A stretch of DNA of 18,646 bases. Source: Ignisphaera sp. (lineage in GTDB: Archaea > Thermoproteota > Thermoprotei_A > Sulfolobales > Ignisphaeraceae). Below are positions 1 to 15,070 of this stretch, in pieces. The notes beneath the pieces were generated by a model that did not search any database, was not told where the DNA came from, and saw only the letters and a program-made list of their open reading frames with translations. Every line of letters begins with the position of its first letter. Position 1 is the stretch's first letter. The DNA lies in contig JAWBDT010000023.1 of assembly GCA_038821645.1 (NCBI GenBank), positions 1-18,646 on the forward strand. Direction: 5' to 3'. The translations under genes and the position numbers were made by a program.

Positions 1-453
1 CTCTTCAAAATATATATTCATCCAGTTTCCACTAGATTTCCTGAAAAACGATATACCAGACTCTCTACAAATATTATCTCTACAAACCATCAATGTAACA
101 ACATCTGCTTCACACTTTATTGCCTTAGCTAGGAACTCCTCAACAATACCTATTGATAGGAAAGGCATATCTGATGGTAGAATAAGTACAGGGAAAGATA
201 CTTTATTCAGAATAAAGTCTAGATCGTAAACATAACCTGCTCCAGGACATATAACAACCTCAACATCATCACTATCCTCAACATTATGAACATCTTCTGC
301 TCTTAAACAAATATACACCTTCCTCCTCTCTTTGACACCTTTAGCCACTTTTACAGCAATATCTATTAACCTCTTACCACATACCTTTAGAAAAGGCTTC
401 TTTAAACCACCTAATCTCGAACCTCTACCACCAGCCATAATAACTACATCCAA
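1..453 (-). CDS. cobY: CobY-like GTP:adenosylcobinamide-phosphate guanylyltransferase (MobA/NTP_transf_3 family), 3' end outside window
   Basis: Not in the ORF track; translated by hand from TTG at 453: LDVVIMAGGRGSRLGGLKKPFLKVCGKRLIDIAV...CPGAGYVYDLDFILNKVSFPVLILPSDMPFL..., open to position 1. The MAGGxGSRL..KP, GxGYVxDL and SDxPF motifs fit archaeal CobY. GTGGTGG SD-like sequence lies upstream and there is an in-frame stop at 469-471. Confidence 0.8.
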   Translation of the reverse strand, partial: MDVVIMAGGRGSRLGGLKKPFLKVCGKRLIDIAVKVAKGVKERRKVYICLRAEDVHNVEDSDDVEVVICPGAGYVYDLDFILNKVSFPVLILPSDMPFLSIGIVEEFLAKAIKCEADVVTLMVCRDNICRESGISFFRKSSGNWMNIYFEE

Positions 454-524
454 CTCTATTCCACCACTTCAGAAACTTATCTAACACAAAGAAGAAGATA
501 TTACTGTAGACCAAATTACATAGC

Positions 525-538
525 CTATATATCTTTAA
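525..538 (-). promoter_or_regulatory. Putative BRE/TATA promoter for the cobY-like gene
   Basis: Minus strand reads TTAAAGATATATAG in the 454-560 intergenic gap, about 70 nt upstream of the TTG. Confidence 0.35.
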
Positions 539-560
539 TGTATTCGAGTTTCATACCTAT

Positions 561-1043
561 CTATCTTTTACTACTTTCACTAATCACAAGTTCTCTAACC
601 TTACTCACAAGCTCTTCTACACTCATCACTATGAGGCCATATCTTCTATAGATTTCATAATCAGCTGGATCTACTGTAACTAGTATATATCCTTTTTCTA
701 GAGCTATAGCTACATTTATCAAATCAGTATTATCGGGATTTATTGCATGATGAAGTAAATCGCTCTTCATTAATGCTACTTTACTGACTATTTTATCATC
801 TACATTCACTATATCGTATATCTGTTTCAAAATATCTACAACTTGTATTTGTGAGTTAATTCTCTTAATGTAGTAGAGATAGGCTAAAAAATCTATGAGC
901 GACAATATTGAGACATGTATTTTTGTTTTAGCTAATATAACTGGAACCAGATTCTTATACTCTCTACTGTGTAGTAGTGCTAAAGCTGATGCATCAACTA
1001 AGAGCTCGAATTTCTCAAGAATATCCTCTATACTGAGATTCAA
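561..1043 (-). CDS. vapC: PIN-domain protein (VapC-like; resembles the Pyrococcus PH0500/PF0355 type)
   Basis: 160 aa with PIN motifs LLVDASAL, SILSLIDFL, NTDLINVAIA and LVTVD. The TTG start overlaps the upstream stop (TTGA, 1040-1043). Confidence 0.85.
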   Translation of the reverse strand: MNLSIEDILEKFELLVDASALALLHSREYKNLVPVILAKTKIHVSILSLIDFLAYLYYIKRINSQIQVVDILKQIYDIVNVDDKIVSKVALMKSDLLHHAINPDNTDLINVAIALEKGYILVTVDPADYEIYRRYGLIVMSVEELVSKVRELVISESSKR

Positions 1044-1261
1044 CGATTGCTACCTTGCTTACGCTTTATCTGTCTAAAGAATGCTGTAGCTTCTTCAGGA
1101 TCTACGTCTATACTTATCCTCTCTATGTTTTCTCTAGCTACATTCATATGCCATCTCTTGATGAGCTCATTTATTAATTCATTGAATGATTGATACCCCA
1201 TTCTATCCTTAAGCTCTCTAAGCTTTCTCCAAGTCTCTTCATCTACAGCTATCGTCTTCAT
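1040..1261 (-). CDS. vapB: Small ribbon-helix-helix DNA-binding protein / VapB-like antitoxin
   Basis: 73 aa. MKTIAVDEETWRKLRELK...SFNELINELI is a beta-strand plus two helices (RHH pattern). Directly upstream of the PIN gene; ATGA overlap with the GH1 stop (1258-1261). Confidence 0.75.
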   Translation of the reverse strand: MKTIAVDEETWRKLRELKDRMGYQSFNELINELIKRWHMNVARENIERISIDVDPEEATAFFRQIKRKQGSNR

Positions 1262-2799
1262 CTTATATCACCCATATTGATTAGATACCTTAGATAGTCT
1301 CTAGGTATCGAATTACTTGTCACTATCTGTTTGTAAATATTGGCAGAATGTCTGGCTCTTCTCTCTTTAGTGATCAGATCTACTTCATATAAACCGAATT
1401 TCTGTTTAAAGCCGTGAGTCCATTCGTAGTTGTCTGTAAGTGCCCAATGAAGATAACCTTTAACATCTATTCCTCTCTCTATAGCCAATAGAATGACATA
1501 TAAATGGTTTACCAGATACGATGGTCTGAGAATATCTTTAGAGTCAGATACACCATTTTCAGTTACATATATTACGCTACTGTATCTACGCCCTACATCA
1601 AGAGCTTCTAAAAGTCCTTCTGGATACATCTCCCATCCCATTCCGTCACACTTCCTACCCGCTTTTGAAAGCCCATAAGGTATACATGCATATCCATATC
1701 CACTTACAGCCTCGAAATCTAGAATAGGGTAACCTTCAAATCTATCCGGTTGTCTCCTTACAATAATTCTTGTATAGTAGTTTATACCGAGCCAGTCAAG
1801 AGAATGTCCAAGCACCTTAGGATTTAATATCGTTTTACCGTCTAACGCTTCATCAAATTTTCCATGAACTATAGCTTCCAGTAGCAAATGGTTATGAAAA
1901 TACGAGTAATGTTCACTAGCTCTACTAGATTCTTCATCGTCTATGGGGTGTGAAGGAATTATGTTGTGAACAATACCTACTTCTGCAGGAGAACTAGAGT
2001 CTTCATCAGCCTTAACCGTATCAAATCTCTTGATAACCCTGTACGCTAGAGCATGAGCTACAGCGATATTTAGTAAAGCTTTAGGCACAATATCTGGTCT
2101 ATTAACACCAGGTGGAAAACCGCTATACGTCCCCATATACCCAAGTTCTACTGGAACCATAGGCTCATTAAATGTAACCCACATATCAACAATATCTCCG
2201 AATTTCCATGCAACATAAGCAGCAAATTTTGTAAACTCTATTGGAAAACTATCTTCTACAACTCCACGAGGACCCTTGTTTAAACAACTAGCTCTGGCTC
2301 TAATGGGGTTATGTATCCAGTAGGGGAGAGTGAAATGCGAGAGATTCAGTATTACTTTGAATCCCCTGCTCCTAAGGTCTAGTATAATGTTTCTATAAAT
2401 GTCTATTGCATTATGATCTGCCAACTCATCCAATTGCTTAAGCACTTCATTAGTTATCTTAACATCTCTAACTATACCATATCCATCAAGCTCTACATCA
2501 ACTTCTACAAACTTTGTAGAAAAAGGAAATATCCTGCTCCACTCAATACCTAACCTATATAGATTTAGCCCCATATGTTCAGCAATTTCATGATCTACTT
2601 TATAGAGCTCTAGATAATTTACACCATCTTCAGGAAGATCCCCACTTACAAGCTTCATAGATATGTTTACAGGATCTCTAACCCAATGCCACCAATCAGT
2701 ATTTACATCTAGATACCTTCTATACTCATCACCCATTTCGAATTGGAATCCAGATTCAGATACACCCCATCTGAATCTCTCTGGAAACTCTAAACCCAT
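1258..2799 (-). CDS. bgaS: Glycoside hydrolase family 1, archaeal beta-glycosidase (beta-galactosidase/glucosidase/mannosidase; LacS/CelB/BgaS-like)
   Basis: 513 aa with FRWGVSESGFQFEMG, RLGIEWSRIFP, catalytic TFNEP (acid/base) and VTENG (nucleophile), GINYY and WALTDNYEW..GF...FGL. SD-like AGGGGAGAGG immediately upstream. Confidence 0.95.
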   Translation of the reverse strand: MGLEFPERFRWGVSESGFQFEMGDEYRRYLDVNTDWWHWVRDPVNISMKLVSGDLPEDGVNYLELYKVDHEIAEHMGLNLYRLGIEWSRIFPFSTKFVEVDVELDGYGIVRDVKITNEVLKQLDELADHNAIDIYRNIILDLRSRGFKVILNLSHFTLPYWIHNPIRARASCLNKGPRGVVEDSFPIEFTKFAAYVAWKFGDIVDMWVTFNEPMVPVELGYMGTYSGFPPGVNRPDIVPKALLNIAVAHALAYRVIKRFDTVKADEDSSSPAEVGIVHNIIPSHPIDDEESSRASEHYSYFHNHLLLEAIVHGKFDEALDGKTILNPKVLGHSLDWLGINYYTRIIVRRQPDRFEGYPILDFEAVSGYGYACIPYGLSKAGRKCDGMGWEMYPEGLLEALDVGRRYSSVIYVTENGVSDSKDILRPSYLVNHLYVILLAIERGIDVKGYLHWALTDNYEWTHGFKQKFGLYEVDLITKERRARHSANIYKQIVTSNSIPRDYLRYLINMGDIR

Positions 2800-2864
2800 A
2801 CCTCTCCCCTAAAATTAGAGCTTCTATATCCTCTAGATATGTTCTTGTTGCTACGTTATGAAGA

Positions 2865-2901
2865 CTTATAACTCTATAACTTATACATGTAGCTTATAAC
2901 T
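2865..2901. promoter_or_regulatory. Clustered TATAAC direct repeats, candidate operator in the divergent promoter
   Basis: CTTATAACT at 2865-2873 and 2893-2901, CTATAACTT at 2874-2882, and a partial CTTATA at 2880-2885. Confidence 0.4.
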
Positions 2902-2905
2902 TTTA

Positions 2906-2919
2906 TTAAAATTTATAAA
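2906..2919 (+). promoter_or_regulatory. Putative BRE/TATA box for the ABC transporter operon
   Basis: TTAAAA followed by TTTATAAA (2912-2919), about 30-40 nt upstream of the GTG (2951) and ATG (2960) candidates. Confidence 0.55.
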
Positions 2920-2950
2920 CCCATTCAAATGCTATATAATTGCAGAGCCG

Positions 2951-5023
2951 GTGTTGTATATGGATGTTAAAATTGAGAGTAGAATTACCGCATTAATGTT
3001 AATGCTAGCTGTAGTTATAGCAATACTATCACCATGTATATCCATTCTAAATGCGCAAGTACTACCAAGAGAGCAGATGCTCGTTATAGGTGGAGCTTAT
3101 TGGGAACCTCCTAAAAAGTTCAATCCATTCAATTATGGAGGTTCTGTATCAGGTATAGTTGGATTGATATATGAGCCTCTCTATCTATGGATACCCATTA
3201 AGCCTGAAGCTGAGAGATGGTTCCCATGGCTAGCCTCAGAACTACCTAGATGGCTTTCAGCTACAGAAGTTGAGATAAAGATTAGGGCAGAAGCAAAATG
3301 GTGGGACGGTAGAGATGTTACAGCAGAAGATGTTAGATTCACATTCTATGATGTTCCAAGAAAAGTTACAACAGCTGCATGGGCTGGTGTGAGAAACTAT
3401 ATAGATGATGTTGTAGTAGTGGATTCTAAAACAGTTAGATTCAAGCTCAATCCAGATACAGCTAACTATGCAGACTTCCTCTTCCAGCTATACTCTGCAC
3501 CCATACTACCCAAACACTTCTATGAAAGCTATGTGAATCAATATGGAGATGAACTTACAGATCTTGCTAAATGGCCTGCAGTTGCTCCAGATAAAGATCC
3601 TAGAAAACTTGTTGGAAGCGGAATGTATAAAGTCTACTCTACAGCTGATGATCATTTCATTCTAGAGAGAGTTGATGACTGGTGGGGTAAAGCAGTATTT
3701 GGGCTACCTCAACCTAAGTACATAAAGGGTGTTGTTGTCTATAGCAATCAAGTAGCAGCCAATATGCTTGGAGCTGGAGAACTAGACTGGAGCTGTTTCT
3801 ATATACCTGGAGGACCTGACATGGTTAAGAGAGGTTTAGCAGTAGCATACTATAGCAAAGAACCTTACTACCTATCTGCTAACGTAGCATTCCTCTTCGT
3901 CAATACACAGAAGAAGCCATTCGATGATGCAAGATTCAGAAGAGCTATGTACTATGCAATAAATGTTGATAAAATAATATCTGCTGCATTTGAAGGTGTT
4001 GTTCTACCATCTAATCCTGTTGGACTTCTACCATATTGGGAGAAATATCTTGCAAAAGATCTTCTAGCAAGATACGACTATAGATACAACCCAGAGAAAG
4101 CTAAACAGATCTTAGATGAAGCTGGATACAAGGATATAGATGGAGATGGATGGAGAGATATGCCTGATGGTACACCAATAAGGATAAGAATCATAGTCCC
4201 ATATGGATGGACAGACTGGATGTTCGCCATAATCAATATAGCAGAAGATCTAAGAGCTGTAGGTATATATGCTGAAGCTATATTCCCAGATTTCGGTAAA
4301 TACATAGAGGAAATAGATAAAGCTACATTTGATGCAGCTATAAACAACTTTGGATCATTCGCAACACCACTACCATACAGTCTATACTACTGGGCATACA
4401 ATGCAACACCAGGTATCTGGACTGGTAGCCACGGAAGATACTACAATCCGAAGCTAAACGACTTGATATATCAGTTAGGAAGAACACCACCAGATCAAGA
4501 AGCCCAAATCGCTAACATACTTAGACAAATCCAAGAGATACTGCTCGAAGAAATGCCCGCGCTACCACTATGGTACAATGGATACTGGTTCCTAGCATCA
4601 ACAAAATACTGGACAGGATGGCCAAGTGAAGAAGATCCATATGGTGTTCCAACTATTTGGAATGGTCAATGGCAACACGGTGGTATGCTAACACTACTTA
4701 GACTAAGGTCAACAGTACTACCAACACCTACACCAACACCTACACCAACACCTACACCAACACCTACACCAACACCTACACCAACACCTACACCAACACC
4801 TACACCAACACCTACACCAACACCTACACCAACTGCTGAAACTGTAACTGTTACTGTTAAAGAAACTGTAACTGCAGTTGCTGCAACTGTTACTGTTAAA
4901 GAAACTGTTAAAGAAACTGTAGCTGAAGTTCCATGGGGTACTGTAGTAGGTATTGCAGCTGTAGTTGCTATTATATGTATTGCTGGAACATATTTTGGTG
5001 TAACTAGATTAGGTAAACGTTAG
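2951..5023 (+). CDS. ABC transporter substrate-binding protein, family 5, probably oligosaccharide-binding (Thermotoga cellobiose-binding-protein-like), with Pro/Thr stalk and C-terminal membrane anchor
   Basis: N-terminal signal peptide (…ILNA|Q), LPRE..L..GG..W.PP..FNP, YEPLY, KWWDGRDVTAEDVRFTF, PFDDARFRRAM, YNPEKAKQILDEAG, GWTDW; aromatic-rich. Ends with (PT)19, a Thr/Val-rich segment, a TM helix and TRLGKR. The true start may be ATG 2960. Confidence 0.93.
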   Translation: MLYMDVKIESRITALMLMLAVVIAILSPCISILNAQVLPREQMLVIGGAYWEPPKKFNPFNYGGSVSGIVGLIYEPLYLWIPIKPEAERWFPWLASELPRWLSATEVEIKIRAEAKWWDGRDVTAEDVRFTFYDVPRKVTTAAWAGVRNYIDDVVVVDSKTVRFKLNPDTANYADFLFQLYSAPILPKHFYESYVNQYGDELTDLAKWPAVAPDKDPRKLVGSGMYKVYSTADDHFILERVDDWWGKAVFGLPQPKYIKGVVVYSNQVAANMLGAGELDWSCFYIPGGPDMVKRGLAVAYYSKEPYYLSANVAFLFVNTQKKPFDDARFRRAMYYAINVDKIISAAFEGVVLPSNPVGLLPYWEKYLAKDLLARYDYRYNPEKAKQILDEAGYKDIDGDGWRDMPDGTPIRIRIIVPYGWTDWMFAIINIAEDLRAVGIYAEAIFPDFGKYIEEIDKATFDAAINNFGSFATPLPYSLYYWAYNATPGIWTGSHGRYYNPKLNDLIYQLGRTPPDQEAQIANILRQIQEILLEEMPALPLWYNGYWFLASTKYWTGWPSEEDPYGVPTIWNGQWQHGGMLTLLRLRSTVLPTPTPTPTPTPTPTPTPTPTPTPTPTPTPTPTPTPTPTAETVTVTVKETVTAVAATVTVKETVKETVAEVPWGTVVGIAAVVAIICIAGTYFGVTRLGKR
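4721..4833 (+). repeat. Perfect 12-bp tandem repeat (CCAACACCTACA) x9 plus partial, encoding the Pro-Thr linker
   Basis: Nine identical units at 4721-4828, then CCAAC. Confidence 0.97.
4846..4908 (+). repeat. 24-bp direct repeat AACTGTTACTGTTAAAGAAACTGT (TVTVKETV motif)
   Basis: Identical copies at 4846-4869 and 4885-4908, followed by a further partial TAAAGAAACTGT. Confidence 0.85.
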
Positions 5024-5028
5024 CACAA

Positions 5029-5055
5029 TATTATTTTTTAAATCATTTTGTTTTG
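5029..5055 (+). terminator. T-rich putative archaeal terminator/attenuator after the binding-protein gene
   Basis: TATTATTTTTTAAATCATTTTGTTTTG just after the stop at 5023, in a 94-bp gap before the permease. Confidence 0.4.
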
Positions 5056-5117
5056 GTGAATCACATGTTCATTAACTATTATAATCTCTTTAAGTATAGT
5101 TACTAAGTGATGTATGT

Positions 5118-6131
5118 ATGTCTCTCAAAAGATATCTGATAAAGAGAGGAATTACATATATCGTTGTTTTTGTTGTAGCTATAACTATTGTGTGGGCTCT
5201 CGTTAGATTTGCTCCAGGAGATCCTGGACTCACAGCAGTAATGAGGTCTTTTATGGCCCCAGGTGTTAGATATACAGAAGAACAGATAGAGGAATTTAAA
5301 CAGAGAGCTAGAGCTATGCTGGGTCTAGATCTACCGCTACATGAACAGTATATACTTTTTTGGATTAAGTTGTTTCAGGGAGATCTCGGATGGAGTATGT
5401 ATTATAGTGCACCAGTTGCACCTAAGCTTGTAGAAGTTCTGACATATGATCTGATCCTTATAACTCCTGCAGTAATAGTGAGCTGGTTTTTAGGTAACTG
5501 GATAGGGGCTTTAGCAGCAAGATATAGAAAGCTTGATAAAGTGTTTATACCAATAATATATGTATTAACCTCTATACCCTACTTCCTACTAGGATTAGCA
5601 TTTGCCTATATACTTGGTGTTGTATATCCTGTCTTCAAGCCAACGATAATGAGGACAGATATAGATCCATTCCTTAGTTCACCAAGTATTGAAACATTCT
5701 CGATGTTCATGAAGGCATATACATTGCCATTTCTATCAATGGTCTTGGTATCTCTTGGTGGATGGGCTTCAGGTATGAGGACTCTCATGATCTATGAGCT
5801 TGAATCTAATTATGCACGATTTATGGAGTCTCTAGGTTTTTCAGAGGGAAAAGTAGCTAGTTATGCATTTAGATATGCCATAAATCCACAGATAACTGGG
5901 CTGGGGGTACAGATAGGGACTATTATTGTTGCAGGAATAGTAGTGTCATCAGTATTCAATTACCCAGGTGCTGGTATAGCCCTCATCTATGCTATAAACT
6001 TTAGAGATATATTCTTGATACAGGGTATAACGATATTCTATACCCTTATGGTTATAGTAGCTAACTTCATAATAGATATTCTGTATGCTGTGATAGATCC
6101 AAGGATAAGGCTTGGTGTTGTAGGTGCATAG
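5118..6131 (+). CDS. dppB: ABC transporter permease, DppB/OppB family
   Basis: RFAPGDP, LGLDLPLHEQY, LFQGDLGWS, EAA-like loop YARFMESLGFSE, VFNYPG, IDILYAVIDPRIR; multiple TM helices. Confidence 0.93.
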   Translation: MSLKRYLIKRGITYIVVFVVAITIVWALVRFAPGDPGLTAVMRSFMAPGVRYTEEQIEEFKQRARAMLGLDLPLHEQYILFWIKLFQGDLGWSMYYSAPVAPKLVEVLTYDLILITPAVIVSWFLGNWIGALAARYRKLDKVFIPIIYVLTSIPYFLLGLAFAYILGVVYPVFKPTIMRTDIDPFLSSPSIETFSMFMKAYTLPFLSMVLVSLGGWASGMRTLMIYELESNYARFMESLGFSEGKVASYAFRYAINPQITGLGVQIGTIIVAGIVVSSVFNYPGAGIALIYAINFRDIFLIQGITIFYTLMVIVANFIIDILYAVIDPRIRLGVVGA

Positions 6132-6133
6132 AT

Positions 6134-7027
6134 ATGAGTGAGAGAAAAATTATATTGAGATTGCTTAAAAAGAATACAAGATTTTGGATATGTCTATCAC
6201 TAGTATTAACCGTAGTAATGTTGGCTTTAATAGGGCCTCTTATAACTCCATATAAACCCAATCAACCTGTAGTAAGAGACGGTAGATACATACGGTCTCT
6301 ACCACCGACTATAGAGCACCTGCATCTATTTGGTGTAGATAATCTTGGATACGATGTGTTTGCAGCAACTGTCTATGGTTTGAGGGTTTCGCTTAGTGTT
6401 GGCGCTATAGCTGCTATAGTGGCAACAGTTGTTGGTGTGATACTGGGTTTGATAGCTGGATATGTTGGTGGATGGGCAGATCTAGTGATAGATGGTGCTA
6501 CAAATGTGCTTCTAGCGATGCCGCCGGTATTCATAATGATTATGGTTGGAACCTTCTATATAGCTGGTCTAGGGATGCCTGGAAAAGAGCTTCAGAACAT
6601 AGCATTCCTGGGATGCTTGATAGGGCTTCTCTCGTGGCATTGGACGGCAAGAGCTGTTAGATCACAAGTTGCTGCACTAAAGGTTAGCGACTTTATAGCT
6701 ATCTCTAGACTTAGTGGGAATCACCCTATAAAGATTATAGTGAAAGATGTATTACCCAATATAGCTTCCTACATACTTCTGGTATTCGTTATCCAGTTAG
6801 CCAATGCACTATCTACTGTTGTAACTCTTGAGTTTCTAGGGATTAAGGCAGCAGAATGGTCTCTATTCGCAAGAGTACAGCAATGGCTTCAGATGGGTGC
6901 ACTAATAACTGGTGTTTGGTGGGCTTTATTTCTACCTGGAGTAGTTATAGTTATGTTGATAGCTTCTCTATACATTATTGTTCTAGCTCTTGAAGAAGTA
7001 TTCAATCCGAGGTTAAGAAAGGTATAG
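6134..7027 (+). CDS. dppC: ABC transporter permease, DppC/OppC family
   Basis: HLFGVDNLGYDVFA, GLRVSLSVG, ARAVRSQV, KDVLPN, LEFLG, WWALFLPG, FNPRLR. Confidence 0.93.
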   Translation: MSERKIILRLLKKNTRFWICLSLVLTVVMLALIGPLITPYKPNQPVVRDGRYIRSLPPTIEHLHLFGVDNLGYDVFAATVYGLRVSLSVGAIAAIVATVVGVILGLIAGYVGGWADLVIDGATNVLLAMPPVFIMIMVGTFYIAGLGMPGKELQNIAFLGCLIGLLSWHWTARAVRSQVAALKVSDFIAISRLSGNHPIKIIVKDVLPNIASYILLVFVIQLANALSTVVTLEFLGIKAAEWSLFARVQQWLQMGALITGVWWALFLPGVVIVMLIASLYIIVLALEEVFNPRLRKV

Positions 7028-7035
7028 GAAAGGGT

Positions 7036-8010
7036 ATGTATATGAGTTCGGTACTAAAGCTAGAGAAATACAAAGTATATTACAGAACTTTTGTAGGTAC
7101 TGTTAAAGCTGTTGATGGTGTAGATCTCGATGTTAGAAGAGGCGAGATACTTGGAATAATAGGTGAAAGTGGATGTGGAAAATCAACACTTGTACAGTCT
7201 CTAGTTCTACCTAAATCCCCTATGTTTATAGCGGGGGGTTCAGCTAAACTACTAGACTCTATAGAGCTCACTAAACTCAGTAGTAAAGAAAGAAGAAAAA
7301 TACTGCTTACAAAAATAGCACTCATACCTCAATACGTATTAGACGCTATTCCTGTGATCAAAAAGATTAATGTGTTTCTAAGAGATTTAGCAAAAGATAA
7401 GAAGATGAAATACGAAGATGTATTCAATACGTTTATCGATAGACTTAAGCTAGTTAATCTACCTCAGAAAGTCCTCGATATGTATCCACTTGAGCTCTCT
7501 GGAGGAATGAGACAGAGAGTAGTTATAGCATTATCAACACTCTTTAAACCAGATCTACTCATAGCCGATGAACCTACTTCTGCTCTAGATGTTGTAACTC
7601 AGAGATATGTGTTAGAACTACTTAGAGACCTAGTTACCCAAAAGCTTGTAGGATCAATAGTATTCATAACACATGATATCTCATCTATAAGGCAGATAGG
7701 TGACAGAATTGCAACAATGTATGCAGGAAAAATAGTTGAGGTAGGGAAGCTAGAAGAAGTAATAAGTTCGCCTCTTCACCCATATACAGCTATGTTGATA
7801 AAATCAGTTCCAAAACTAGAAAACTCGTATAGAGTCTCTAGATTAGTGGGATTAGCTGGTGCACCACCAAGTCTAGTGAATCCACCACCAGGCTGTAGAT
7901 TTCATTCAAGATGTCCATTCGCTATGGATATATGTAGAAGAGAAGAACCACCTCTAACAAATATAGATAGAGATAGATATGTATCTTGCTGGCTTTATTC
8001 AAAGAGGTGA
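7036..8010 (+). CDS. dppD: ABC transporter ATP-binding protein, DppD/OppD family
   Basis: Walker A GESGCGKS, signature LSGGMRQR, Walker B LLIADEPT, ITHD, and C-terminal HPYT...GCRFHSRC...C...CW. The start may be ATG 7042. Confidence 0.95.
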   Translation: MYMSSVLKLEKYKVYYRTFVGTVKAVDGVDLDVRRGEILGIIGESGCGKSTLVQSLVLPKSPMFIAGGSAKLLDSIELTKLSSKERRKILLTKIALIPQYVLDAIPVIKKINVFLRDLAKDKKMKYEDVFNTFIDRLKLVNLPQKVLDMYPLELSGGMRQRVVIALSTLFKPDLLIADEPTSALDVVTQRYVLELLRDLVTQKLVGSIVFITHDISSIRQIGDRIATMYAGKIVEVGKLEEVISSPLHPYTAMLIKSVPKLENSYRVSRLVGLAGAPPSLVNPPPGCRFHSRCPFAMDICRREEPPLTNIDRDRYVSCWLYSKR

Positions 8011-8016
8011 TAAGAT

Positions 8017-8979
8017 ATGTCTGAAGCTATATTGAAGCTCGAGAATGTTACAAAAATATTTAGGTTAGGTCTTCTAGGTAAAACAACGATAAAGGCAGTT
8101 GATAGAGTTAATCTAGATATTATTAAAGGAGAGATCCTCGGTATACTAGGGGAATCAGGAAGCGGAAAATCAACAATAGCTAAGCTCCTTCTCAAAATAT
8201 ATGAACCTACATATGGTAGAATACTATTTAAAGGAAAAGATATAAGAATCTTCAAAGGGTCTAAAAAGCTTAAGGACTACTATATGCATGTGCAAGGTGT
8301 TTTTCAGGACCCATATGCAAGTTTTAATCCTAGGAGAAGAGTCCTCAGCACATTGATGGATACTGTGAAAAACTATTATCCAAAGTTGCTTAAAGAGGAT
8401 ATAGAGAAGGTAATAATGTCATCACTTGAGAAAGTAGGGCTCAATATCAGGGATGTTGTGGGTAGGTATCCTCACGAGTTTAGTGGAGGACAGTTACAGA
8501 GGTTATCGATTGCTAGAGCTCTTCTAGTAAATCCAGAGGTTATTATAGCTGATGAACCTGTATCAATGGTTGATGCCTCAACAAGAATAGATATATTGAA
8601 CATATTTATAGATCTAAAGGAGAGAGAGGGATTGACACTAGCTATAATAGGTCATGATCTTGGCTTAACTCGATATGTTAGTGATAGAGTTGTTGTACTC
8701 TATAGAGGTCAAGTAGTTGAGGAAGGTGTTGCAGAAATTCTTTCAGAACCTGCACATCCGTATACCAAAATGCTTGCTGAATCTATACCTAGAATAGATA
8801 AGAGATGGGAAAGCAAGATACAATATGGTGTAGGATCTATAGAACTAGGTGCTAAAGGTGTTGGATGTGTATTTGCTGATAGATGTCCATATAGACTCGA
8901 TATCTGTACCAAAAAAGAACCAGAGTATGTTGATATGGGTAAGAGTCGTGTGAAATGTTGGCTATACACATCAAAATGA
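8017..8979 (+). CDS. dppF: ABC transporter ATP-binding protein, DppF/OppF family
   Basis: GESGSGKS, FQDPYASFNP, FSGGQLQR, IIADEPVSMVD, HPYT...GCVFADRC...C...CW; SD GAGGTGA upstream. Confidence 0.95.
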   Translation: MSEAILKLENVTKIFRLGLLGKTTIKAVDRVNLDIIKGEILGILGESGSGKSTIAKLLLKIYEPTYGRILFKGKDIRIFKGSKKLKDYYMHVQGVFQDPYASFNPRRRVLSTLMDTVKNYYPKLLKEDIEKVIMSSLEKVGLNIRDVVGRYPHEFSGGQLQRLSIARALLVNPEVIIADEPVSMVDASTRIDILNIFIDLKEREGLTLAIIGHDLGLTRYVSDRVVVLYRGQVVEEGVAEILSEPAHPYTKMLAESIPRIDKRWESKIQYGVGSIELGAKGVGCVFADRCPYRLDICTKKEPEYVDMGKSRVKCWLYTSK

Positions 8980-9025
8980 TTATGCTTTATCATCTAACCA
9001 AATTATTTAAATCTTTTTAGAGATG

Positions 9026-10342
9026 CTACCCATTTACATCATGATGAACTGGTTTAACTTCGTAATTCTCCATATGGACTCCTAGCGGTATTCTTTCGTG
9101 TGGCCATACCTTTACATTAACTAGTTTACTGAAGGCACCTATGTGTGCATTATCTCCTATGTAGCTATTTATTAGTGTTACCCCTTTCTCTATATGGACA
9201 TGTCTCCCAATGATAGAGTTCATTATCTTTACATCGTCTTCTATAAAACTTCTATCCATTATAGCTGAACCAAGTATATGGCAACCAGACTTGATTATGC
9301 TATAGTTATCTATAACGGAATCCTCTATATAGACGTTATCACCTATATCGGTATGTCTACCTATTAGCGAAACACCTGAGAACTTTACAAGTCCTCTCCT
9401 ATATCTCTCAACTATATCTTTGTGAAGAACTTTAGAAGCTTGAGATTTACCTTGCATATATACTCCAGGAAGCTTTTCTTCGGCTTCCAATATTCTGTGA
9501 TCAGAATGATACAGCAGAAACTTCATTGCCTCGAGATATCTTTCGGGTGTACCTATGTCGAACCAATACCCATTCTTCATTACATATCCATAAACTCTGT
9601 AGCCAAGCTCTATAAGTTTCGGGATAATGTCTTTTCCGAAATCCATTCTACCTGTTTTAAGCATATCCATACCATGGACACTGTTAAAGAAATCTATTAC
9701 TGTGGGCTGGATCAAGTATATACCTGTATTAACGAGTTTACTAGGAGCTTCTTGAGGCTTTGGTTTCTCAACAAACTTTATGACTCTGTTATCGTTATCG
9801 AGTACAGCTACACCAAATTCACTAACATCTTCAACTTCTTTGAAGACTATAGTCATATCTGCTTCAACACTTTTATGAAATCTATACACATCACCTATAT
9901 TTAGCTTGAATAGATTATCACATTGAACAACTATGAAAGATTCCCTCAAATCGTAGTAATCTACGAGAATTCTTACAGCATCAGCATTACCGAGAGTTTC
10001 GTACCTAGGCATATACCTAATCCTAACATCATGATCTATGAAGGGATATCTAGTTCTTATCCAGTAACCTTCTTTAAAGTAGTCATAAACAGATTTATAG
10101 TTATAGTAGCCTCTAACACCTAGATAAATTTCTTCTATACCGTTCATGGCAAGCTCGAGAATAATCAATTCTAGAATTGGTTTATTAAGTATCCGTATCA
10201 AAGCTTTAGAAGTTCCTATAGATAGAGGCCTAAGTCTAACAGCTTCACCTCCTATAGGTATTACAGCTATCCGAAGACCATCATTAGCCAAAAAGGGATC
10301 CCCAGATATAATTAAGAACAACAGTTTATTAAATCTTTCCAA
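9026..10342 (-). CDS. NDP-sugar pyrophosphorylase, GlgC-like glucose-1-phosphate nucleotidyltransferase with C-terminal left-handed beta-helix
   Basis: IPIGGEAVRLRPLS..SKAL, LGNADAVR, FGV, FVEKP, NTGIY, MDFGKDIIP, YWFDIGT and hexapeptide repeats. The likely true start is TTG at 10291 (GGGGA SD and a TATA-like box upstream). Confidence 0.88.
   Translation of the reverse strand: MERFNKLLFLIISGDPFLANDGLRIAVIPIGGEAVRLRPLSIGTSKALIRILNKPILELIILELAMNGIEEIYLGVRGYYNYKSVYDYFKEGYWIRTRYPFIDHDVRIRYMPRYETLGNADAVRILVDYYDLRESFIVVQCDNLFKLNIGDVYRFHKSVEADMTIVFKEVEDVSEFGVAVLDNDNRVIKFVEKPKPQEAPSKLVNTGIYLIQPTVIDFFNSVHGMDMLKTGRMDFGKDIIPKLIELGYRVYGYVMKNGYWFDIGTPERYLEAMKFLLYHSDHRILEAEEKLPGVYMQGKSQASKVLHKDIVERYRRGLVKFSGVSLIGRHTDIGDNVYIEDSVIDNYSIIKSGCHILGSAIMDRSFIEDDVKIMNSIIGRHVHIEKGVTLINSYIGDNAHIGAFSKLVNVKVWPHERIPLGVHMENYEVKPVHHDVNG
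10326..10340 (-). promoter_or_regulatory. Putative BRE/TATA for the NDP-sugar pyrophosphorylase
   Basis: Minus strand GGAAAGA-TTTAATAA, about 35 nt upstream of TTG 10291. Confidence 0.45.
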
Positions 10343-10425
10343 TATCTAGACACTCAGCATTATTCTCCACTTTATTATACAGTTTATTATCCCTAGTCCA
10401 TTAATATTTTTCTGGGTCTAGAGAA

Positions 10426-12003
10426 GTGTATGCACCTATATCGATAAAAAAAGTATGGATGCTAAGCTTTGAGTATAGTGGTATAACAAAACTCGGTGGT
10501 TTAGGAGAAGCAGTAGCTCTAATGAGCACAGAGCTCGCTAATAGAGGATTTGAAGTAACTGTTGTAATGCCATCGCATGGCGTTTCTCCAAAGAACTTCA
10601 AGGAATTAGATATTGTGTGTAGAGGTGATAGATATGGTGTTGATGGCAATATTTATCCATATGATCTAGGTTTTCTAGAAGGTTATGTAGATAAGGTTAA
10701 GGTTATCCTAATCAGAGGAAGAGATAACCGTACATCTAGTGTTATAGATGTTTGGCCTCCCTATAGCTATGCTGATGAAAAAGCATGTCTTTTAGCTAGA
10801 GGTGCACTATGTTTAGCTCAGGCATTGGGTTATCCAGATATTGTTCATGTAAATGATTGGCATTCAGCTTTAGCAGGTGCTCTCCTAAAGAGTGTAGCTG
10901 AAGTCAATGGATATGCTCTACCCACACTTTATCAAATCCATCTCAGAGGGTCACCTTCATATCCATGGCATTACGCTTCTGAAGCATGGCTAGGTATACC
11001 GGATATTCTTCAACGTATATGGAGTGTACATAGACATGAGTTTCTCTCAACTAGATATTTGTGGGATAGTTGTTGGGGTAATATAGAGTGCTTCATGGTG
11101 AAGATAGCTGATGCCATAGCTACAGTAAGTAGATCTGAAGTAGATAGTCTTGCTCACGACTATGGTGAATGGATTAGAGGAAAGTGTTGCTATATATATA
11201 ACTCAACTTCATGGAGCATTAGAGAAGTGGAAGAGATAGCTAAAAGAGTGTACAGATCTATAGATAGGGTTGAGATTAGATGGAAAGTTGTTGAAGATGT
11301 GATTAACAAGACTCATCTATGGGGCTATATAGATCTAAAGGATGGCGATATACTTGTTGTATCATCTGGTAGATTGACATCTCAAAAAGGATTCGATACA
11401 CTTATCCATTCAGCTAGACATTTACCCCATTCTATAAAGATACTTATCCTCGGAAAAAGCGTAGGAGACTATGGATATGAAAACTATCTAAGAAGCCTAT
11501 TAGGCGATGTTTTAGGTAAAGTCGCAATAGTTTATGATGGACTGGATCTAGATATGTATAAGGTGCTTATTTATGTATCCCATCTATATGTTTTACCATC
11601 TAGATATGAGCCTTTCGGTATATCAGGTATAGAAGCTCTATCTATAGGAACACCTCTAGTTGTGTCTAATACTGGAGGACTTTCAGAATATGTTGGTGAT
11701 CTAAGGGCTACACCACTAGGTGTAGGTATCAAGGTCCCTTCTGGAGATGTCTATGAACTTGCTAAAGCTATTCAGAGTCTCGGCTACCTCATGTTTTATA
11801 GTGAAACAGGTCGAGGTCTCGAGAGTATAGTTTATAGAGAACTTAGAGATATAGTGTTGAGGGAACCTAGATATGGAGAGAAGATTAGGGAATTTTCGAT
11901 AAGCTATATAGATTCTTACTTCAGACCTAAACATACTGTAAATAGCTTGATATCATGTTACGAACTTGCACGTCGAATGGCTTACTATAGAGCTTGTACA
12001 TAG
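10426..12003 (+). CDS. glgA: Glycogen/starch synthase (GT5)
   Basis: TKLGGLGEA (KxGGL), VTVVMPSHG, PDIVHVNDWH, GRLTSQKG, LPSRYEPFGISGIEA, TGGL. Confidence 0.93.
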   Translation: MYAPISIKKVWMLSFEYSGITKLGGLGEAVALMSTELANRGFEVTVVMPSHGVSPKNFKELDIVCRGDRYGVDGNIYPYDLGFLEGYVDKVKVILIRGRDNRTSSVIDVWPPYSYADEKACLLARGALCLAQALGYPDIVHVNDWHSALAGALLKSVAEVNGYALPTLYQIHLRGSPSYPWHYASEAWLGIPDILQRIWSVHRHEFLSTRYLWDSCWGNIECFMVKIADAIATVSRSEVDSLAHDYGEWIRGKCCYIYNSTSWSIREVEEIAKRVYRSIDRVEIRWKVVEDVINKTHLWGYIDLKDGDILVVSSGRLTSQKGFDTLIHSARHLPHSIKILILGKSVGDYGYENYLRSLLGDVLGKVAIVYDGLDLDMYKVLIYVSHLYVLPSRYEPFGISGIEALSIGTPLVVSNTGGLSEYVGDLRATPLGVGIKVPSGDVYELAKAIQSLGYLMFYSETGRGLESIVYRELRDIVLREPRYGEKIREFSISYIDSYFRPKHTVNSLISCYELARRMAYYRACT

Positions 12004-12028
12004 AGTTTAAAATCGATATGGGTAAAGC

Positions 12029-12039
12029 TTTTTATTTTT
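12029..12039 (+). terminator. T-tract between glgA and glgP (possible terminator or promoter element)
   Basis: Part of GCTTTTTTATTTTTAG in the 87-bp gap after the glgA stop. Confidence 0.3.
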
Positions 12040-12090
12040 AGCCATAGCTAAGCATTTTCTCTAGGACATTAGCTCTAAAGGTAGCTTCCA

Positions 12091-13653
12091 TTGGTAGTGG
12101 TATCTGTAACACCTGAAATAGCTCTAGAGGAAATTAATTGTTATGCTGGTGGTCTAGGGGTACTTGAGGGAGATAAATTTATTGAGGCTTCTAAGAATGG
12201 ATTTAAATACTTTGTGCTAACGTTACTCTATAAAAAAGGTTATGTGGATTACTATATAACTGATGATGGAAACATCATAGCTAAACCACAGAAACATCCT
12301 ATAGATTTGACAAAGTTTATGAAAGCTGAAGAAGAATTCGTAATCAAGATTAGAGGAGAGAACGTCTATACACGTCCATGGATATACACAAAGGGTAGAG
12401 CTAAGGTAGTATTTTTTGAAGCAACATGTCCTTTGTGGTTGAGGCAAGCTACTGAGAGAGTATATATCGAGAAAGATGAGGAGAGTAGGATATATAAATG
12501 GATCTTCTTAGCTAAAGCTTCAGCAAAATACATCAAGGAATTCATAGGCCTAGATAGTGTAGATGTCATAGATCTTAATGAAGCATATGCATCACTTCTA
12601 GTATATGCATTACCAGAATACAAGAACTTTAGGCTTATAGTACATACACCAGGACCCTGGGGACATCCATACATATCTTCTCAAGTTCTTGAAGAAGAAT
12701 TTGGGGTAAAGATTAAACATGATAGTGAAATGATAACTAGACTAGCTCTTGAAAGAGTTTCAAAAGCTTATGCAGTATCGAGAAAACATTATGAAGTAAC
12801 AAAGATTCTTTTCCCTGAATTTGTACACAAGTTTAGTTATGTAACTAACGGTGTTAGTATAGATAGATGGAGACATCATGTAATCAGAGATCTTGTGGCA
12901 AGTAAAGGTCTAGAGAATATCTCTTCTGAAGATCTGTGGCGTACACATCTAAAGATCAAGAAAGAGCTGATCGAGGATCTTCTAAAGATCTATAAACCGG
13001 GGCTAGAAATTGATGAAACAATTCCTATAGCTGTTTGGTGTAGAAGGATCGTTAGATATAAGAGGCCTTACTTCATTACATGGTTTATAGAGGATATAGG
13101 TAGAGATCTAGATGTAGTCTTCGTTATAGGTGGAAAACCGCATCCAGATGATAGAGATGGTCTTCACTATACTAAAAAGTTTCTAGAGTTAAGTAAAAAA
13201 TACGATAATGTTGTATTTATACATGACTACGACATATCTAAAGCTAAGCTTTTGCTAAGTGGATGCGATATACATCTCTTCACCCCGTTCCCTGGATGGG
13301 AAGCCTGTGGCACAAGCTACATGAAGGCAGCTCTAAATGGTGTTCCAACACTTAGTTCAAGAGATGGTGGAGCCCTAGAATTTATTGTTGATGGAGTAAA
13401 TGGTTGGTTCTTTGGCTCAGAAATCAATGAATTCATAAACATTTACAGCGATACAAGAGTAAACGATATCGATAAAGTTGAGTATGAGGAGTTTAGTGAA
13501 AAATTGGTAGATATTTTAAAGAGCTATGGTTCTATTAAATACAAAGAGATAGCTCTTAACGTATTGAAAACTTCTGAGAGATTTAGTATCAAGAGAGTTC
13601 TCTCTGAACTCTATAAACCTATTAATGAAAACAATGGCTCTGTATCTGGGTAA
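12091..13653 (+). CDS. glgP: Alpha-glucan (glycogen/maltodextrin) phosphorylase, GT35, short crenarchaeal type
   Basis: YAGGLGVLEGD, LNE, HTPGPWGH, VTNGV, RRIVRYKRP, GKPHP, PLP-site EACGTSYMKAALNG, SRDGG; 520 aa. Confidence 0.92.
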   Translation: MVVVSVTPEIALEEINCYAGGLGVLEGDKFIEASKNGFKYFVLTLLYKKGYVDYYITDDGNIIAKPQKHPIDLTKFMKAEEEFVIKIRGENVYTRPWIYTKGRAKVVFFEATCPLWLRQATERVYIEKDEESRIYKWIFLAKASAKYIKEFIGLDSVDVIDLNEAYASLLVYALPEYKNFRLIVHTPGPWGHPYISSQVLEEEFGVKIKHDSEMITRLALERVSKAYAVSRKHYEVTKILFPEFVHKFSYVTNGVSIDRWRHHVIRDLVASKGLENISSEDLWRTHLKIKKELIEDLLKIYKPGLEIDETIPIAVWCRRIVRYKRPYFITWFIEDIGRDLDVVFVIGGKPHPDDRDGLHYTKKFLELSKKYDNVVFIHDYDISKAKLLLSGCDIHLFTPFPGWEACGTSYMKAALNGVPTLSSRDGGALEFIVDGVNGWFFGSEINEFINIYSDTRVNDIDKVEYEEFSEKLVDILKSYGSIKYKEIALNVLKTSERFSIKRVLSELYKPINENNGSVSG

Positions 13654-15070
13654 GCATGTGGAGATAGATCTAAATGAACTAGGTAAGTGGTTAAAGAGAG
13701 CAAGATGGTGGCCTAAGGATAGAGAGGTAGTCTCTATCCTGGATCACGAATTCTATAGAGATGGAGAGTACCTCATTCTACTAATTGTTGATGATAATGG
13801 GTATAGGTATTTTGTTCCACTAAAGAAGGTGAATAAAGATATCTATGTCTCTGTATCTCTGGAGATCAATGGAGATATCTATGTTGAAGCAGATCTTGTA
13901 GAACCTTTTCTATTGAGAGCTAGAAACATTATCGATTGCGAACATCTCTATATTTTACCGAAGTGTTTATTCGATAAAGTAGAGCTAGTGACAGATTCAT
14001 CAAATGTTGTTACAATAGCTTTATCAGATAAAGAAGAATGCAGAATTGTTGTGAAGAGCTATAGATTAGTTTCTACAGATAGAATCGAGTTGAAGATAGC
14101 TAGATACTTGATGGCTAAAGGTTTTAGATATATACCCAAGATATATTCTGTATGCAGGTATAGAGGCTACACCATAGGGTTATCTCTAGAGTATGTTGAG
14201 GGAGTTAATGGAGGACTACCATTCTATGAATCTCTTCTAAATCTCTTAAGAAGAGGTATAGAGAGCAACATACATGATCTAGACTATTCTGTAGGGAGAA
14301 CTGTTGCAGAACTACATAAAGTGTTTGCATTAAGTGATGATGCCTTCTTCTCTTCAGAACTTTTTACTATTGAAGATACTGAATTATGGGGGAAAAGACT
14401 TGAAGAGATAGCGAATAGGCTTCTACATAATCTAGATACACTACATACTGAAGATCGTATAGATGGTTTTTGGATTGAGGCTATAGATAAAAGAGTCCCT
14501 GTATGGATAGAAAGAGCGTTTAATGCTTTTGTAATATTTAGTGAAACTAAGAAGATATTATGTCATAGTGATCTACATCTAGGTCAAATGGTTTACTCAA
14601 GTGATAGAGGATTCACTATAGTTGACTTCGAAGGCGAGCCTTTATTTCTGTCTAGAGATAGGTATCTAAAGTCTCACGGTTTTAGGGATATAGCTTCACT
14701 TATTCGGAGCCTAGACTACATACTTTTTGCAGGAGTAAAGGAGGTCTATGGAATGGATATAGATTCTATTGCAAAAAAGTTTGCTAAATATGGATGGGGT
14801 GAAGCAAGGAAATGGAGAGATGCTCATGCTTCATCTATAGTGATGAGCTATATCCATAATCTTGCTAGAGAATCTCTTCTAGAAATTGTGTTAGGCTTTA
14901 GATCTATACCTAGAGATCTATATAGATACATCACTCCATGGTATATCTATAGAGTTTTTTATGAAGCACTATACGAATCTATATATAGACCCCATAATCT
15001 GCCGATACCGCTTCACGTACTTATATGGGATCCTGAGGATATAGTTATGGGTATAGGTGGTGGGATTTGA
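13625..15070 (+). CDS. Maltokinase-like (Mak/Pep2) aminoglycoside-phosphotransferase-fold sugar kinase
   Basis: N-terminal WL..ARWW, DSSN (cf. EQSN), VVKSYR, AELH, CHSDLHLGQM, VDFEGEP, RDIASLIRSLDY, YEALYE..YRP. Overlaps the glgP 3' end; the start may be ATG 13634. Confidence 0.8.
   Translation: MKTMALYLGKHVEIDLNELGKWLKRARWWPKDREVVSILDHEFYRDGEYLILLIVDDNGYRYFVPLKKVNKDIYVSVSLEINGDIYVEADLVEPFLLRARNIIDCEHLYILPKCLFDKVELVTDSSNVVTIALSDKEECRIVVKSYRLVSTDRIELKIARYLMAKGFRYIPKIYSVCRYRGYTIGLSLEYVEGVNGGLPFYESLLNLLRRGIESNIHDLDYSVGRTVAELHKVFALSDDAFFSSELFTIEDTELWGKRLEEIANRLLHNLDTLHTEDRIDGFWIEAIDKRVPVWIERAFNAFVIFSETKKILCHSDLHLGQMVYSSDRGFTIVDFEGEPLFLSRDRYLKSHGFRDIASLIRSLDYILFAGVKEVYGMDIDSIAKKFAKYGWGEARKWRDAHASSIVMSYIHNLARESLLEIVLGFRSIPRDLYRYITPWYIYRVFYEALYESIYRPHNLPIPLHVLIWDPEDIVMGIGGGI

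Follow-up and report, generated by a model that had tools for sequence, protein, structure and literature searches.

Here we report that, in an 18,646-nucleotide (nt) stretch of DNA from Ignisphaera sp. (GenBank assembly GCA_038821645.1, contig JAWBDT010000023.1; hereafter the window), a VapBC-type gene pair encoding a ribbon–helix–helix (RHH) protein and a PIN-domain protein is built into the 3′ end of a β-glycosidase operon, and that this arrangement has been kept throughout the history of one glycoside hydrolase family 1 (GH1) subfamily in two archaeal phyla. Descent and fold both mark the pair as VapBC. It differs from a toxin–antitoxin family in its fixed context, its single copy per GH1 paralogue, its lack of a promoter region of its own and its decaying nuclease site, which is under purifying selection. 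Inheritance together with the enzyme gene suggests that the pair is now part of sugar-gene control. The explanation that we favour, tentatively and at somewhat below an even chance, is a VapBC-derived, FitAB-like RHH–PIN complex that feeds back on the promoters of GH1 and of a divergent ATP-binding cassette (ABC) transporter operon. An earlier reading of the window (the original prediction) had described the pair as a domesticated sugar regulator rather than a toxin–antitoxin system; synteny, congruent trees and a candidate operator speak for the first half of that claim, whereas four acidic residues kept in the window PIN protein and two loci at which the pair outlives GH1 weaken the second half.

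The locus comprises a tricistron on the minus strand and a divergent transporter operon on the plus strand:

1258–2799, minus strand: GH1 β-glycosidase of the BgaS/LacS type, first gene of the tricistron, 513 amino acids, ATG start
1040–1261, minus strand: RHH protein, VapB-like, 73 amino acids, ATG start
561–1043, minus strand: PIN protein of the PH0500/1y82 family with a VapC-like fold, 160 amino acids, TTG start
1267–1273, minus strand: Shine–Dalgarno-like GGGTGAT, 5 nt 5′ of the RHH ATG and within the GH1 3′ end, as read from the sequence
2800–2950 (151 bp): promoter region that separates the diverging GH1 and binding-protein genes and contains a phased array of TTATAA-type palindromes
2951–5023, plus strand: family-5 solute-binding protein of the divergent ABC operon (SBP_bac_5, E 6.4e-56)
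5118–6131 and 6134–7027, plus strand: two permeases of the Opp/Dpp-type ABC transporter (BPD_transp_1, OppC_N)
7036–8010 and 8017–8979, plus strand: two ATPases of the Opp/Dpp-type ABC transporter (ABC_tran, oligo_HPY)

The GH1 stop codon TGA (1260–1258) overlaps the RHH ATG (1261–1259) in the sequence ATGA at 1258–1261, and the RHH stop TGA overlaps the TTG start of PIN in TTGA at 1040–1043, so that open reading frame (ORF) coordinates and junctions both agree with the chaining of the three genes by 4-bp overlaps that the original prediction described. The GH1 protein matches PF00232 (E 1.9e-61) and the NCBIfam model BgaS (NF041004; 507.7 bits against a cut-off of 475). The transporter has the complete Opp/Dpp-type (family 5) set, an SBP_bac_5 protein with two BPD_transp_1 permeases and two oligo_HPY ATPases; in Pyrococcus, transporters of this type carry β-glucosides. 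As the original prediction had also stated, no other transcription factor was found at the GH1/ABC divergon: the 15 large window ORFs that were scanned contain no further DNA-binding family, small ORFs lying outside that scan.

The window RHH protein matches RHH_1 (E 6.1e-6), scoring 26.4 bits where the cut-off is 20.5, and also passes DUF7557, with VAPB_antitox slightly under its cut-off. Its AlphaFold2 (AF2) model (predicted local distance difference test (pLDDT) score 86.8) has residues 1–7 extended, followed by helices at 8–21, 26–48 and 55–71; residues 1–38 constitute the DNA-binding domain and residues 55–71 the C-terminal helix, and the best structural matches, which are weak, are the RHH domains of NikR, CopG and ParD. 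The N-terminal segment of RHH proteins forms the DNA-reading strand, and here the N terminus (MKTIAVDE.TW) is nearly invariant among 53 homologues. The gene order is that of VapBC, with the gene for a small DNA-binding antitoxin directly 5′ of the toxin gene; RHH lies upstream of PIN in 53 of 54 unique modules.

The PIN protein falls below the Pfam threshold (PF01850, E 0.053, 14.6 bits against 23.6). Searched with phmmer against solved structures in the Protein Data Bank (PDB), it matches 1y82 of Pyrococcus furiosus (E 8e-19) and 1v96/5h4g of PH0500 (‘VapC4’; E 2.4e-17), bearing out the resemblance to PH0500 and PF0355 named in the original prediction. Its AF2 model (pLDDT 94.6) superposes best on 1y82/1v96 in Foldseek (template modelling (TM) score 0.8–0.9), then on the VapC chains of VapBC complexes (TM 0.60–0.76) and on FitAB, and the matches include VapBC–promoter DNA and FitAB–DNA complexes. 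The window protein thus has the PIN fold of VapC. Its closest structural counterparts, PH0500 of Pyrococcus horikoshii (PDB 1v96, 1ye5, 5h4g, 5h4h; ‘Ribonuclease VapC4’) and 1y82, belong to the same family at about 32% identity. They differ from the window system in that the solved entries contain the PIN protein alone and in that PH0500 has an arginine at the second catalytic position, where the window protein has the acidic D51. The PIN protein of one Thermococcales locus (L095) equals 1v96 at 149 of 149 residues, and this locus likewise reads GH1–RHH–PIN; a literature search that excluded subscription journals found no paper on the gene context of PH0500. An exhaustive search of 1.84 billion proteins gave 28 representatives at E≤1e-3, which makes this a small family and not a sprawling toxin–antitoxin family. 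A homologous-protein search gave only two close relatives of the window PIN protein, the nearest public proteins to the window’s come from Ignisphaera metagenome-assembled genomes, and a pattern search of genome contigs with the window PIN protein produced 196 matches, none of them confirmed.

The genomic context of this family is nearly fixed. In Thermoprotei and Thermococcales together, 62 of 65 PIN family members immediately follow a GH1 gene, always of the same subfamily. The 351 genomes of the window’s class, the window included, hold 14 PIN places at E<1e-10, the 13 outside the window having been examined with their flanks; 12 (the window and 11 others) are intact units in which an ABC operon diverges from GH1–RHH–PIN. 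At a further locus (L039, genome G083) the pair is intact and only fragments are left of the GH1, binding-protein and ATPase genes, and at L042 a truncated PIN gene stands in an unrelated context. The locus is patchy, a close pair occurring in only 2 of the 17 genomes of the window’s genus, the window’s own included. The Thermococcales were reached through one representative (P0021), which itself gave four Thermococcus loci; 99 genomes yielded 51 PIN places at E≤1.7e-23, plus one fragment, with GH1 directly upstream in 50. Sequences retrieved for 40 of these loci contain RHH in all 40 and GH1 directly upstream in 39, and at the other 11 places, known from coordinates only, a GH1 match lies 200–230 bp upstream on the same strand. 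At L113 (G362) the pair is intact and GH1 has been deleted down to a 3′ remnant; this locus sits among housekeeping genes, adjoining a PIN_6-type ribonuclease gene and seryl-tRNA synthetase. Where a genome has two or three GH1 paralogues, each is followed by one pair, as in the two tandem units of G434, and the binding-protein gene diverges from GH1 in 45 of 50 full modules. The synteny that the original prediction named for the Thermococcales GH1/ABC loci therefore extends more widely than had been guessed, and the tabulated neighbourhoods are consistently GH1-linked instead of random. Toxin–antitoxin families are normally multicopy and occur in many contexts; the variable context and copy number of VapBC are not seen in this PIN family.

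At five loci (L099, L100, L102, L106 and L116, one Thermococcales clade and one further locus), co-directional ORFs without a Pfam match precede GH1, and a GH16 gene follows PIN in L099 and L116, the ones scanned. This looks like a longer β-glucan operon that still ends in GH1–RHH–PIN.

The linkage follows the enzyme’s phylogeny. In Thermoprotei, GH1 matches fall into a band of at least 55% identity and a band of at most 49%, and every PIN neighbour is in the first; in Thermococcales the pair stands behind 51 of 54 full-length GH1 genes at ≥47% identity, and the GH1 bands at 43–45% and 35–41% identity are without it. A GH1 gene of the right subfamily lacks the pair at six loci (L119, L120, L121, L126, L127 and L128). 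Behind GH1 in L119 (G079), at 4856–5571, lie a convergent MNT-like nucleotidyltransferase (GSVVRKKF..DIDVLIV) and a possibly frameshifted HEPN-like ORF, which by an assignment made by eye are a different toxin–antitoxin-type pair at the same spot. Across the 50 full modules, distances in the GH1 tree correlate with those in the PIN tree (r 0.87), a value reached in 0 of 999 permutations. All five GH1 clades, two from Thermoprotei and three from Thermococcales (TcA, TcB and TcC), recur in the PIN tree. The clade labels change 7 times on that tree, the minimum being 5 and the shuffled mean 29, with 0 of 200 shuffles as low. Because kin share both genes, this congruence shows linkage through duplications and not functional co-evolution.

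The junctions between GH1 and RHH leave little room for a separate promoter. The gap is at most 43 bp in all 51 modules, and the 4-bp overlap of the window occurs in 28 of them; the others divide as follows:

20-bp overlap: 5 modules
1-bp overlap: 1 module
abutting (0): 1 module
gap of +2 to +14 bp: 13 modules
gap of +43 bp: 3 modules

All 53 of 53 modules have a Shine–Dalgarno-like motif 3–16 nt 5′ of the RHH start, and 42 of the 53 also have one before PIN. TATA-like hexamers within 70 nt 5′ of RHH occur in 9 of 53, including all three modules with the 43-bp gap. The pair is thus not the free-standing bicistron with its own autoregulated promoter that VapBC modules are, and the prediction that it has no intergenic promoter holds on this count, qualified by a start site inside the 3′ part of the GH1 gene of Thermococcus kodakarensis that we discuss below.

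The three genes differ in how they have been conserved. Mean identity between Thermoprotei and Thermococcales is 50.8% for GH1, 56.2% for RHH residues 1–38, 20.3% for the RHH tail and 23.9% for PIN, so the RHH DNA-binding domain is conserved across phyla to the same degree as the enzyme. Ratios of non-synonymous to synonymous substitution rates (dN/dS) in clade TcA are 0.09 for GH1, 0.12 for RHH and 0.23 for PIN, and for PIN the comparison of the window with genome G199 gives 0.17; all three genes are under purifying selection, while PIN and the RHH tail evolve fast. Aligned to 52 relatives, the window PIN protein has acidic residues at D17, D51 (E in relatives), D107 and D125. The four positions are complete in only 13 of 53 PIN proteins, the window’s among them, and so the acidic set of VapC is not conserved across this protein’s own family. 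Only the first aspartate (D17), kept by 52 of 53, is near-invariant; 50 of 53 have D or E at position 107, and 45 of 53 have an acidic residue at 124 or 125. Position 51, by contrast, is acidic (E or D) in 16 of 53 and otherwise R (16), S (8), A (7), K (4), N (1) or P (1); of the two largest Thermococcales clades, TcA has R or K here and TcB has A or S.

These data bear on the reading under which public databases and pipelines label the two proteins, ‘VapC family toxin’ and ‘antitoxin’. An ordinary VapBC addiction or stress module may ride on a mobile accessory sugar island, the PIN protein being a neutralisable RNase toxin and RHH its labile antitoxin; such a module would aid persistence of the island or arrest growth when the operon shuts off, and any effect on the sugar genes would be a by-product of autoregulation from the only available promoter. 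The VapC-like fold, the RHH partner and the overlapping genes fit this account, as do the complete acidic set of the window protein, the resemblance of the fast-evolving PIN protein and RHH tail to a co-evolving toxin–antitoxin interface, and the patchiness of the locus (14 places in 351 Thermoprotei genomes, 2 of 17 in the genus). The pair has outlasted a GH1 gene that decayed (L039) and one that was deleted (L113), as an addictive module would, and in L119 a HEPN/MNT-like pair occupies the place behind GH1 where RHH–PIN is missing. Canonical VapBC systems, such as Rickettsia felis VapBC2 on promoter DNA (3zvk) and those of Shigella and Mycobacterium tuberculosis, share with the window family the fold (TM 0.60–0.76), the antitoxin-then-toxin order, the gene overlap and the small DNA-binding antitoxin. 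The window family departs from them in having no promoter region of its own, a fixed place behind one enzyme gene, one copy per GH1 paralogue and a catalytic set that is degenerate in 40 of 53 members. An addiction module would also have to account for congruent trees and 62 of 65 members behind one GH1 subfamily, for genes that stay intact although only 13 of 53 keep the four acidic residues (the clade with R or K at the second site has a dN/dS of 0.23), for an RHH DNA-binding domain as conserved as an enzyme and for the absence of an intergenic promoter in 51 of 51 modules. On this evidence we regard an ordinary VapBC module as unlikely.

The intergenic region that GH1 shares with the transporter offers a candidate target for the RHH protein. 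Three exact TTATAA palindromes lie in it:

2866–2871: TTATAA nearest GH1, 67 nt 5′ of its ATG and, from this position, a candidate GH1 TATA box and/or operator
2894–2899: middle TTATAA
2913–2918: TTATAA within TTTATAAA, 33–38 nt 5′ of the binding-protein start, likewise a candidate TATA box and/or operator

Allowing one mismatch adds sites at 2874 and 2856 and gives a series at 2913/2894/2874/2856 with spacings of 19, 20 and 18 bp. Of the window genome’s 111 divergent intergenic regions of 90–300 bp, 84 contain no TTATAA, 24 contain one and 2 contain two; only the window region contains three. It also has the longest phased chain (5) of the 347 intergenic regions of that genome, the next best being 3. 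A second TTATAA cluster in the 1.57-Mb genome (contig C22, 18621–18698; L125, 6622–6699) proved to be a tandem duplication of about 27 bp in a coding region, an ORF of 405–466 amino acids at a contig end, and was rejected as an operator.

The same pattern recurs in the relatives. Counts of TTATAA in three clade sets were 26, 39 and 57, against 5.5, 4.3 and 5.0 in dinucleotide shuffles. TcB regions contain 3–6 exact sites with spacings that are nearly all 19–22 bp or double that, and the characteristic spacing is 19 bp in Thermoprotei and 18 bp in TcA. With phase windows set at 18–22, 37–42 and 57–62 bp, the exact pairs in phase number 67 of 70 in TcB, 10 of 18 in Thermoprotei and 5 of 7 in TcA, values matched by 0 of 200 dinucleotide shuffles. 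Among 60 sources, 21 of 23 clusters of at least three TTATAA lie in GH1/binding-protein intergenic regions; L122, where RHH stands at a contig end, has an array spaced 19/26/19. The six GH1 loci without the pair have 0–1 exact TTATAA upstream, and five of them have no phased array. Our case for an operator is built on TTATAA counts and phasing and not on k-mer enrichment: 8-mers such as AACTTATA recur in 5 of 11 Thermoprotei intergenic regions, a borderline result, as the 95th percentile of the mononucleotide-shuffle null is also 5. The phased palindromes, as a pattern in the DNA, give the predicted RHH repressor with a PIN co-regulator a concrete candidate operator, and together with the enzyme-like conservation of the RHH domain they point to a conserved DNA target in the common promoter region. 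In L099 (G432), three exact TTATAA also lie inside the 3′ half of the PIN gene (9039–9093), about 100–150 bp 5′ of the co-directional GH16 (laminarinase-type) gene, which may have its promoter embedded in the PIN ORF; the trio was not seen in that clade’s other three loci.

T. kodakarensis provides the best-described counterpart of the window locus. The three proteins encoded at L080 have the same sequences as T. kodakarensis BAD85950/51/52, a GH1 β-glycosidase, a conserved hypothetical protein and a PIN-domain protein, and next in the locus come a PIG-L deacetylase and a GH18 chitinase, in accord with the chitin-cluster context that the original prediction gave for Thermococcales. A position of −12 to −7 relative to a transcription start site (TSS) is typical of archaeal repressor sites. 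PMC3691661 calls TK1761–TK1762–TK1763 a well-established operon divergent from TK1760, citing Santangelo et al. 2008. It shares with the window the order GH1–RHH–PIN, the 4-bp overlaps (by the gene coordinates in PMC4247193) and the divergent binding-protein gene TK1760. It differs in lying in a chitin cluster, whereas the window locus is beside glycogen genes, in sequence (about 26% identity for PIN, 48% for GH1) and in having two TTATAA 18 bp apart at the GH1 promoter where the window has a four-site series. The primary TSS of TK1761 is 10 nt before its start codon (PMC4247193); one TTATAA is centred 27 nt 5′ of this TSS and the second occupies −12 to −7.

These positions leave room for a different account, in which the arrays are unrelated to the pair, being stacked TATA boxes of strong bidirectional promoters or the sites of another regulator, and RHH–PIN acts elsewhere or on itself. 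TTATAA fits the archaeal TATA consensus, both sites on the TK1761 side lie 26–27 nt 5′ of a mapped TSS, one per strand (PMC4247193), a TrmB-family regulator gene is found 8 kb away in the T. kodakarensis locus, and a degenerate phased chain persists at the pair-less L119. Four to six sites phased by 19–21 bp nevertheless exceed what two promoters need, and most divergent regions of the window genome manage with no TTATAA (84 of 111) or one (24). Pair-less GH1 loci, moreover, have at most one exact site, and RHH, with its nearly invariant N-terminal segment, is the only conserved DNA-binding protein of the locus. A TrmB/Tgr-type motif (consensus TATCAC-N5-GTGATA) was tried and rejected, matching 0 of 45 regions at up to two mismatches and 5 of 45 at three. 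An array without any connection to the pair therefore seems to us quite improbable.

Under the explanation we favour, RHH dimers would read the TTATAA palindromes, which include or flank both TATA boxes, and PIN dimers would link adjacent RHH dimers in the way that FitB links FitA. What the last two cistrons encode would in this way close a negative feedback loop on the glycosidase and transporter operons, RHH binding to the palindromes and PIN bridging being what we propose to produce repression of both. FitAB of Neisseria gonorrhoeae (RHH antitoxin FitA and PIN protein FitB on their operator; PDB 2bsq) resembles the window pair in that an RHH partner is encoded 5′ of a VapC-like PIN protein (2bsq_B, Foldseek E 1.7e-4); it differs in being a free-standing bicistron with its own promoter and in having only 12% sequence identity to the window PIN protein. 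We take the FitAB complex to bind a pair of half-sites separated by about two helical turns, its RHH dimers being bridged by PIN dimers. The 18–22-bp phasing of the TTATAA palindromes would fit that geometry. The PIN nuclease site looks optional for a repressor role, being complete in the window protein and lost in most relatives, and PIN proteins that have kept it may still act as an RNase on the operon’s own mRNA or as a toxin.

Several observations weigh against such feedback. TTATAA is itself TATA-box-like, and the second T. kodakarensis site lies 26 nt 5′ of a secondary minus-strand TSS assigned to TK1760 (PMC4247193), so that it may be a TATA box; taken together, these two facts mean that the arrays could be stacked promoters instead of operators. 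Phased chains are only 1–2 long in 23 of 45 regions with the pair, chains of at least 2 also occur in 91 of 347 ordinary intergenic regions of the window genome, pair-less L119 retains a degenerate phased chain of 4, and the loci within one clade are kin, whose counts overstate independence. A secondary TSS of TK1762 is mapped 185 nt upstream, inside TK1761 (PMC4247193), preceded by the TATA-like ATATATAAAG; the original prediction had named a separate TSS inside the GH1 3′ end as evidence against it, and in T. kodakarensis this has in part been found. TATA-like hexamers at that place occur in 8 of 20 TcA loci, 1 of 12 Thermoprotei loci (not the window), 0 of 14 TcB loci and 0 of 4 TcC loci. 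The pair and GH1 can live apart, since L039 and L113 keep the pair and six loci keep GH1 alone. The window PIN protein keeps D17, D51, D107 and D125, which is compatible with a toxin role, and the database names, VapC toxin and antitoxin, say the same.

The PIN domains of VapC-type proteins are RNases, and the pair might instead work at the level of RNA, with PIN as a site-specific RNase that processes the operon transcript at the GH1/RHH junction, or the transporter mRNA, and so sets the ratio of enzyme, transporter and regulator, and RHH as its inhibitor. Besides the established activity of such domains and the complete acidic set of the window protein, one mapped transcript end is relevant: a 5′ end at 1563761 (L080 8797), in the overlap of the TK1761 stop and TK1762 start, carries its authors’ flag ‘no promoter, processing site?’, which three entries of that file received (PMC4247193). 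The clade of T. kodakarensis has K or R at the second acidic position of PIN, however, which makes PIN activity doubtful in the very organism where the 5′ end was seen; the end could also be the product of a housekeeping RNase or an artefact, with no link to PIN, and the strong conservation of the RHH DNA-binding domain would go unexplained. We consider RNA processing as the main function very unlikely. The same file lists an antisense TSS inside TK1763, at 1564093 (PMC4247193).

A more far-reaching version of repression by the RHH–PIN complex is possible, if on the whole doubtful: that the pair is a former toxin–antitoxin system, now the dedicated repressor of divergons for β-glycoside (chitobiose, cellobiose, laminarin-type) uptake and hydrolysis in hyperthermophilic archaea of two phyla, in which RHH dimers, placed on the phased TATA-box-like palindromes, would compete with TATA-binding protein (TBP) at both promoters, PIN dimers would bridge and sense a signal, and residual PIN RNase activity would trim the operon mRNA at the GH1/RHH junction. 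If true, a VapBC module would have been domesticated as a metabolic regulator long ago and stably.

To our knowledge, VapBC genes are the most numerous toxin–antitoxin genes in archaea, where their roles are largely open. Here a small VapBC-like family has abandoned the mobile, multicopy life and has been inherited, duplicated and diverged strictly with one enzyme gene; the pair is thus a clean case for studying how a toxin–antitoxin module becomes a metabolic regulator, and for most of the PH0500-type family the pipeline labels ‘VapC family toxin’ and ‘antitoxin’ may be misleading. The proteins, the two structures and the T. kodakarensis operon were already known; in a search that did not extend to subscription journals, we found no publication that describes how strictly the pair is tied to one GH1 subfamily in both phyla, how differently RHH and PIN are conserved, or an operator or the phased TTATAA arrays. 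The proposed feedback is directly testable with TK1762/TK1763 in the genetically tractable T. kodakarensis, where the pair stands behind the easily assayed β-glycosidase TK1761, which is reported to have been used as a reporter, and crystal structures exist for two PIN family members.

The wider window adds observations on neighbouring genes. In the C-terminal part of the binding protein (about 4720–4900), a hydrophobic anchor comes after a long Thr-Pro repeat (TPTPTP...), an arrangement of linker and membrane anchor; the repeat gives spurious weak NCBIfam matches to repeat proteins. Contigs from a sediment metatranscriptome run (X20), mostly 90–99% alike and so probably from a relative, cover the binding-protein gene and, weakly, bins 901–1500, which hold the RHH gene and its GH1 and PIN junctions. 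Across window positions 1–9000 the binding-protein gene is covered by much deeper contigs than the rest, a contig depth that cannot rank genes; these contigs reveal neither a single transcript, nor strand, nor level, and we therefore draw no inference from them. The remainder of the window (9026–18542) is a glycogen or α-glucan gene cluster, in which several genes have overlapping stop and start codons:

9026–10342, minus strand: sugar-1-phosphate nucleotidyltransferase with a hexapeptide domain
10426–12003: GlgA-type synthase
12091–13653: phosphorylase-like GT protein
13625–15070: APH-like kinase
15067–16617 and 16614–18542: two GH57 enzymes

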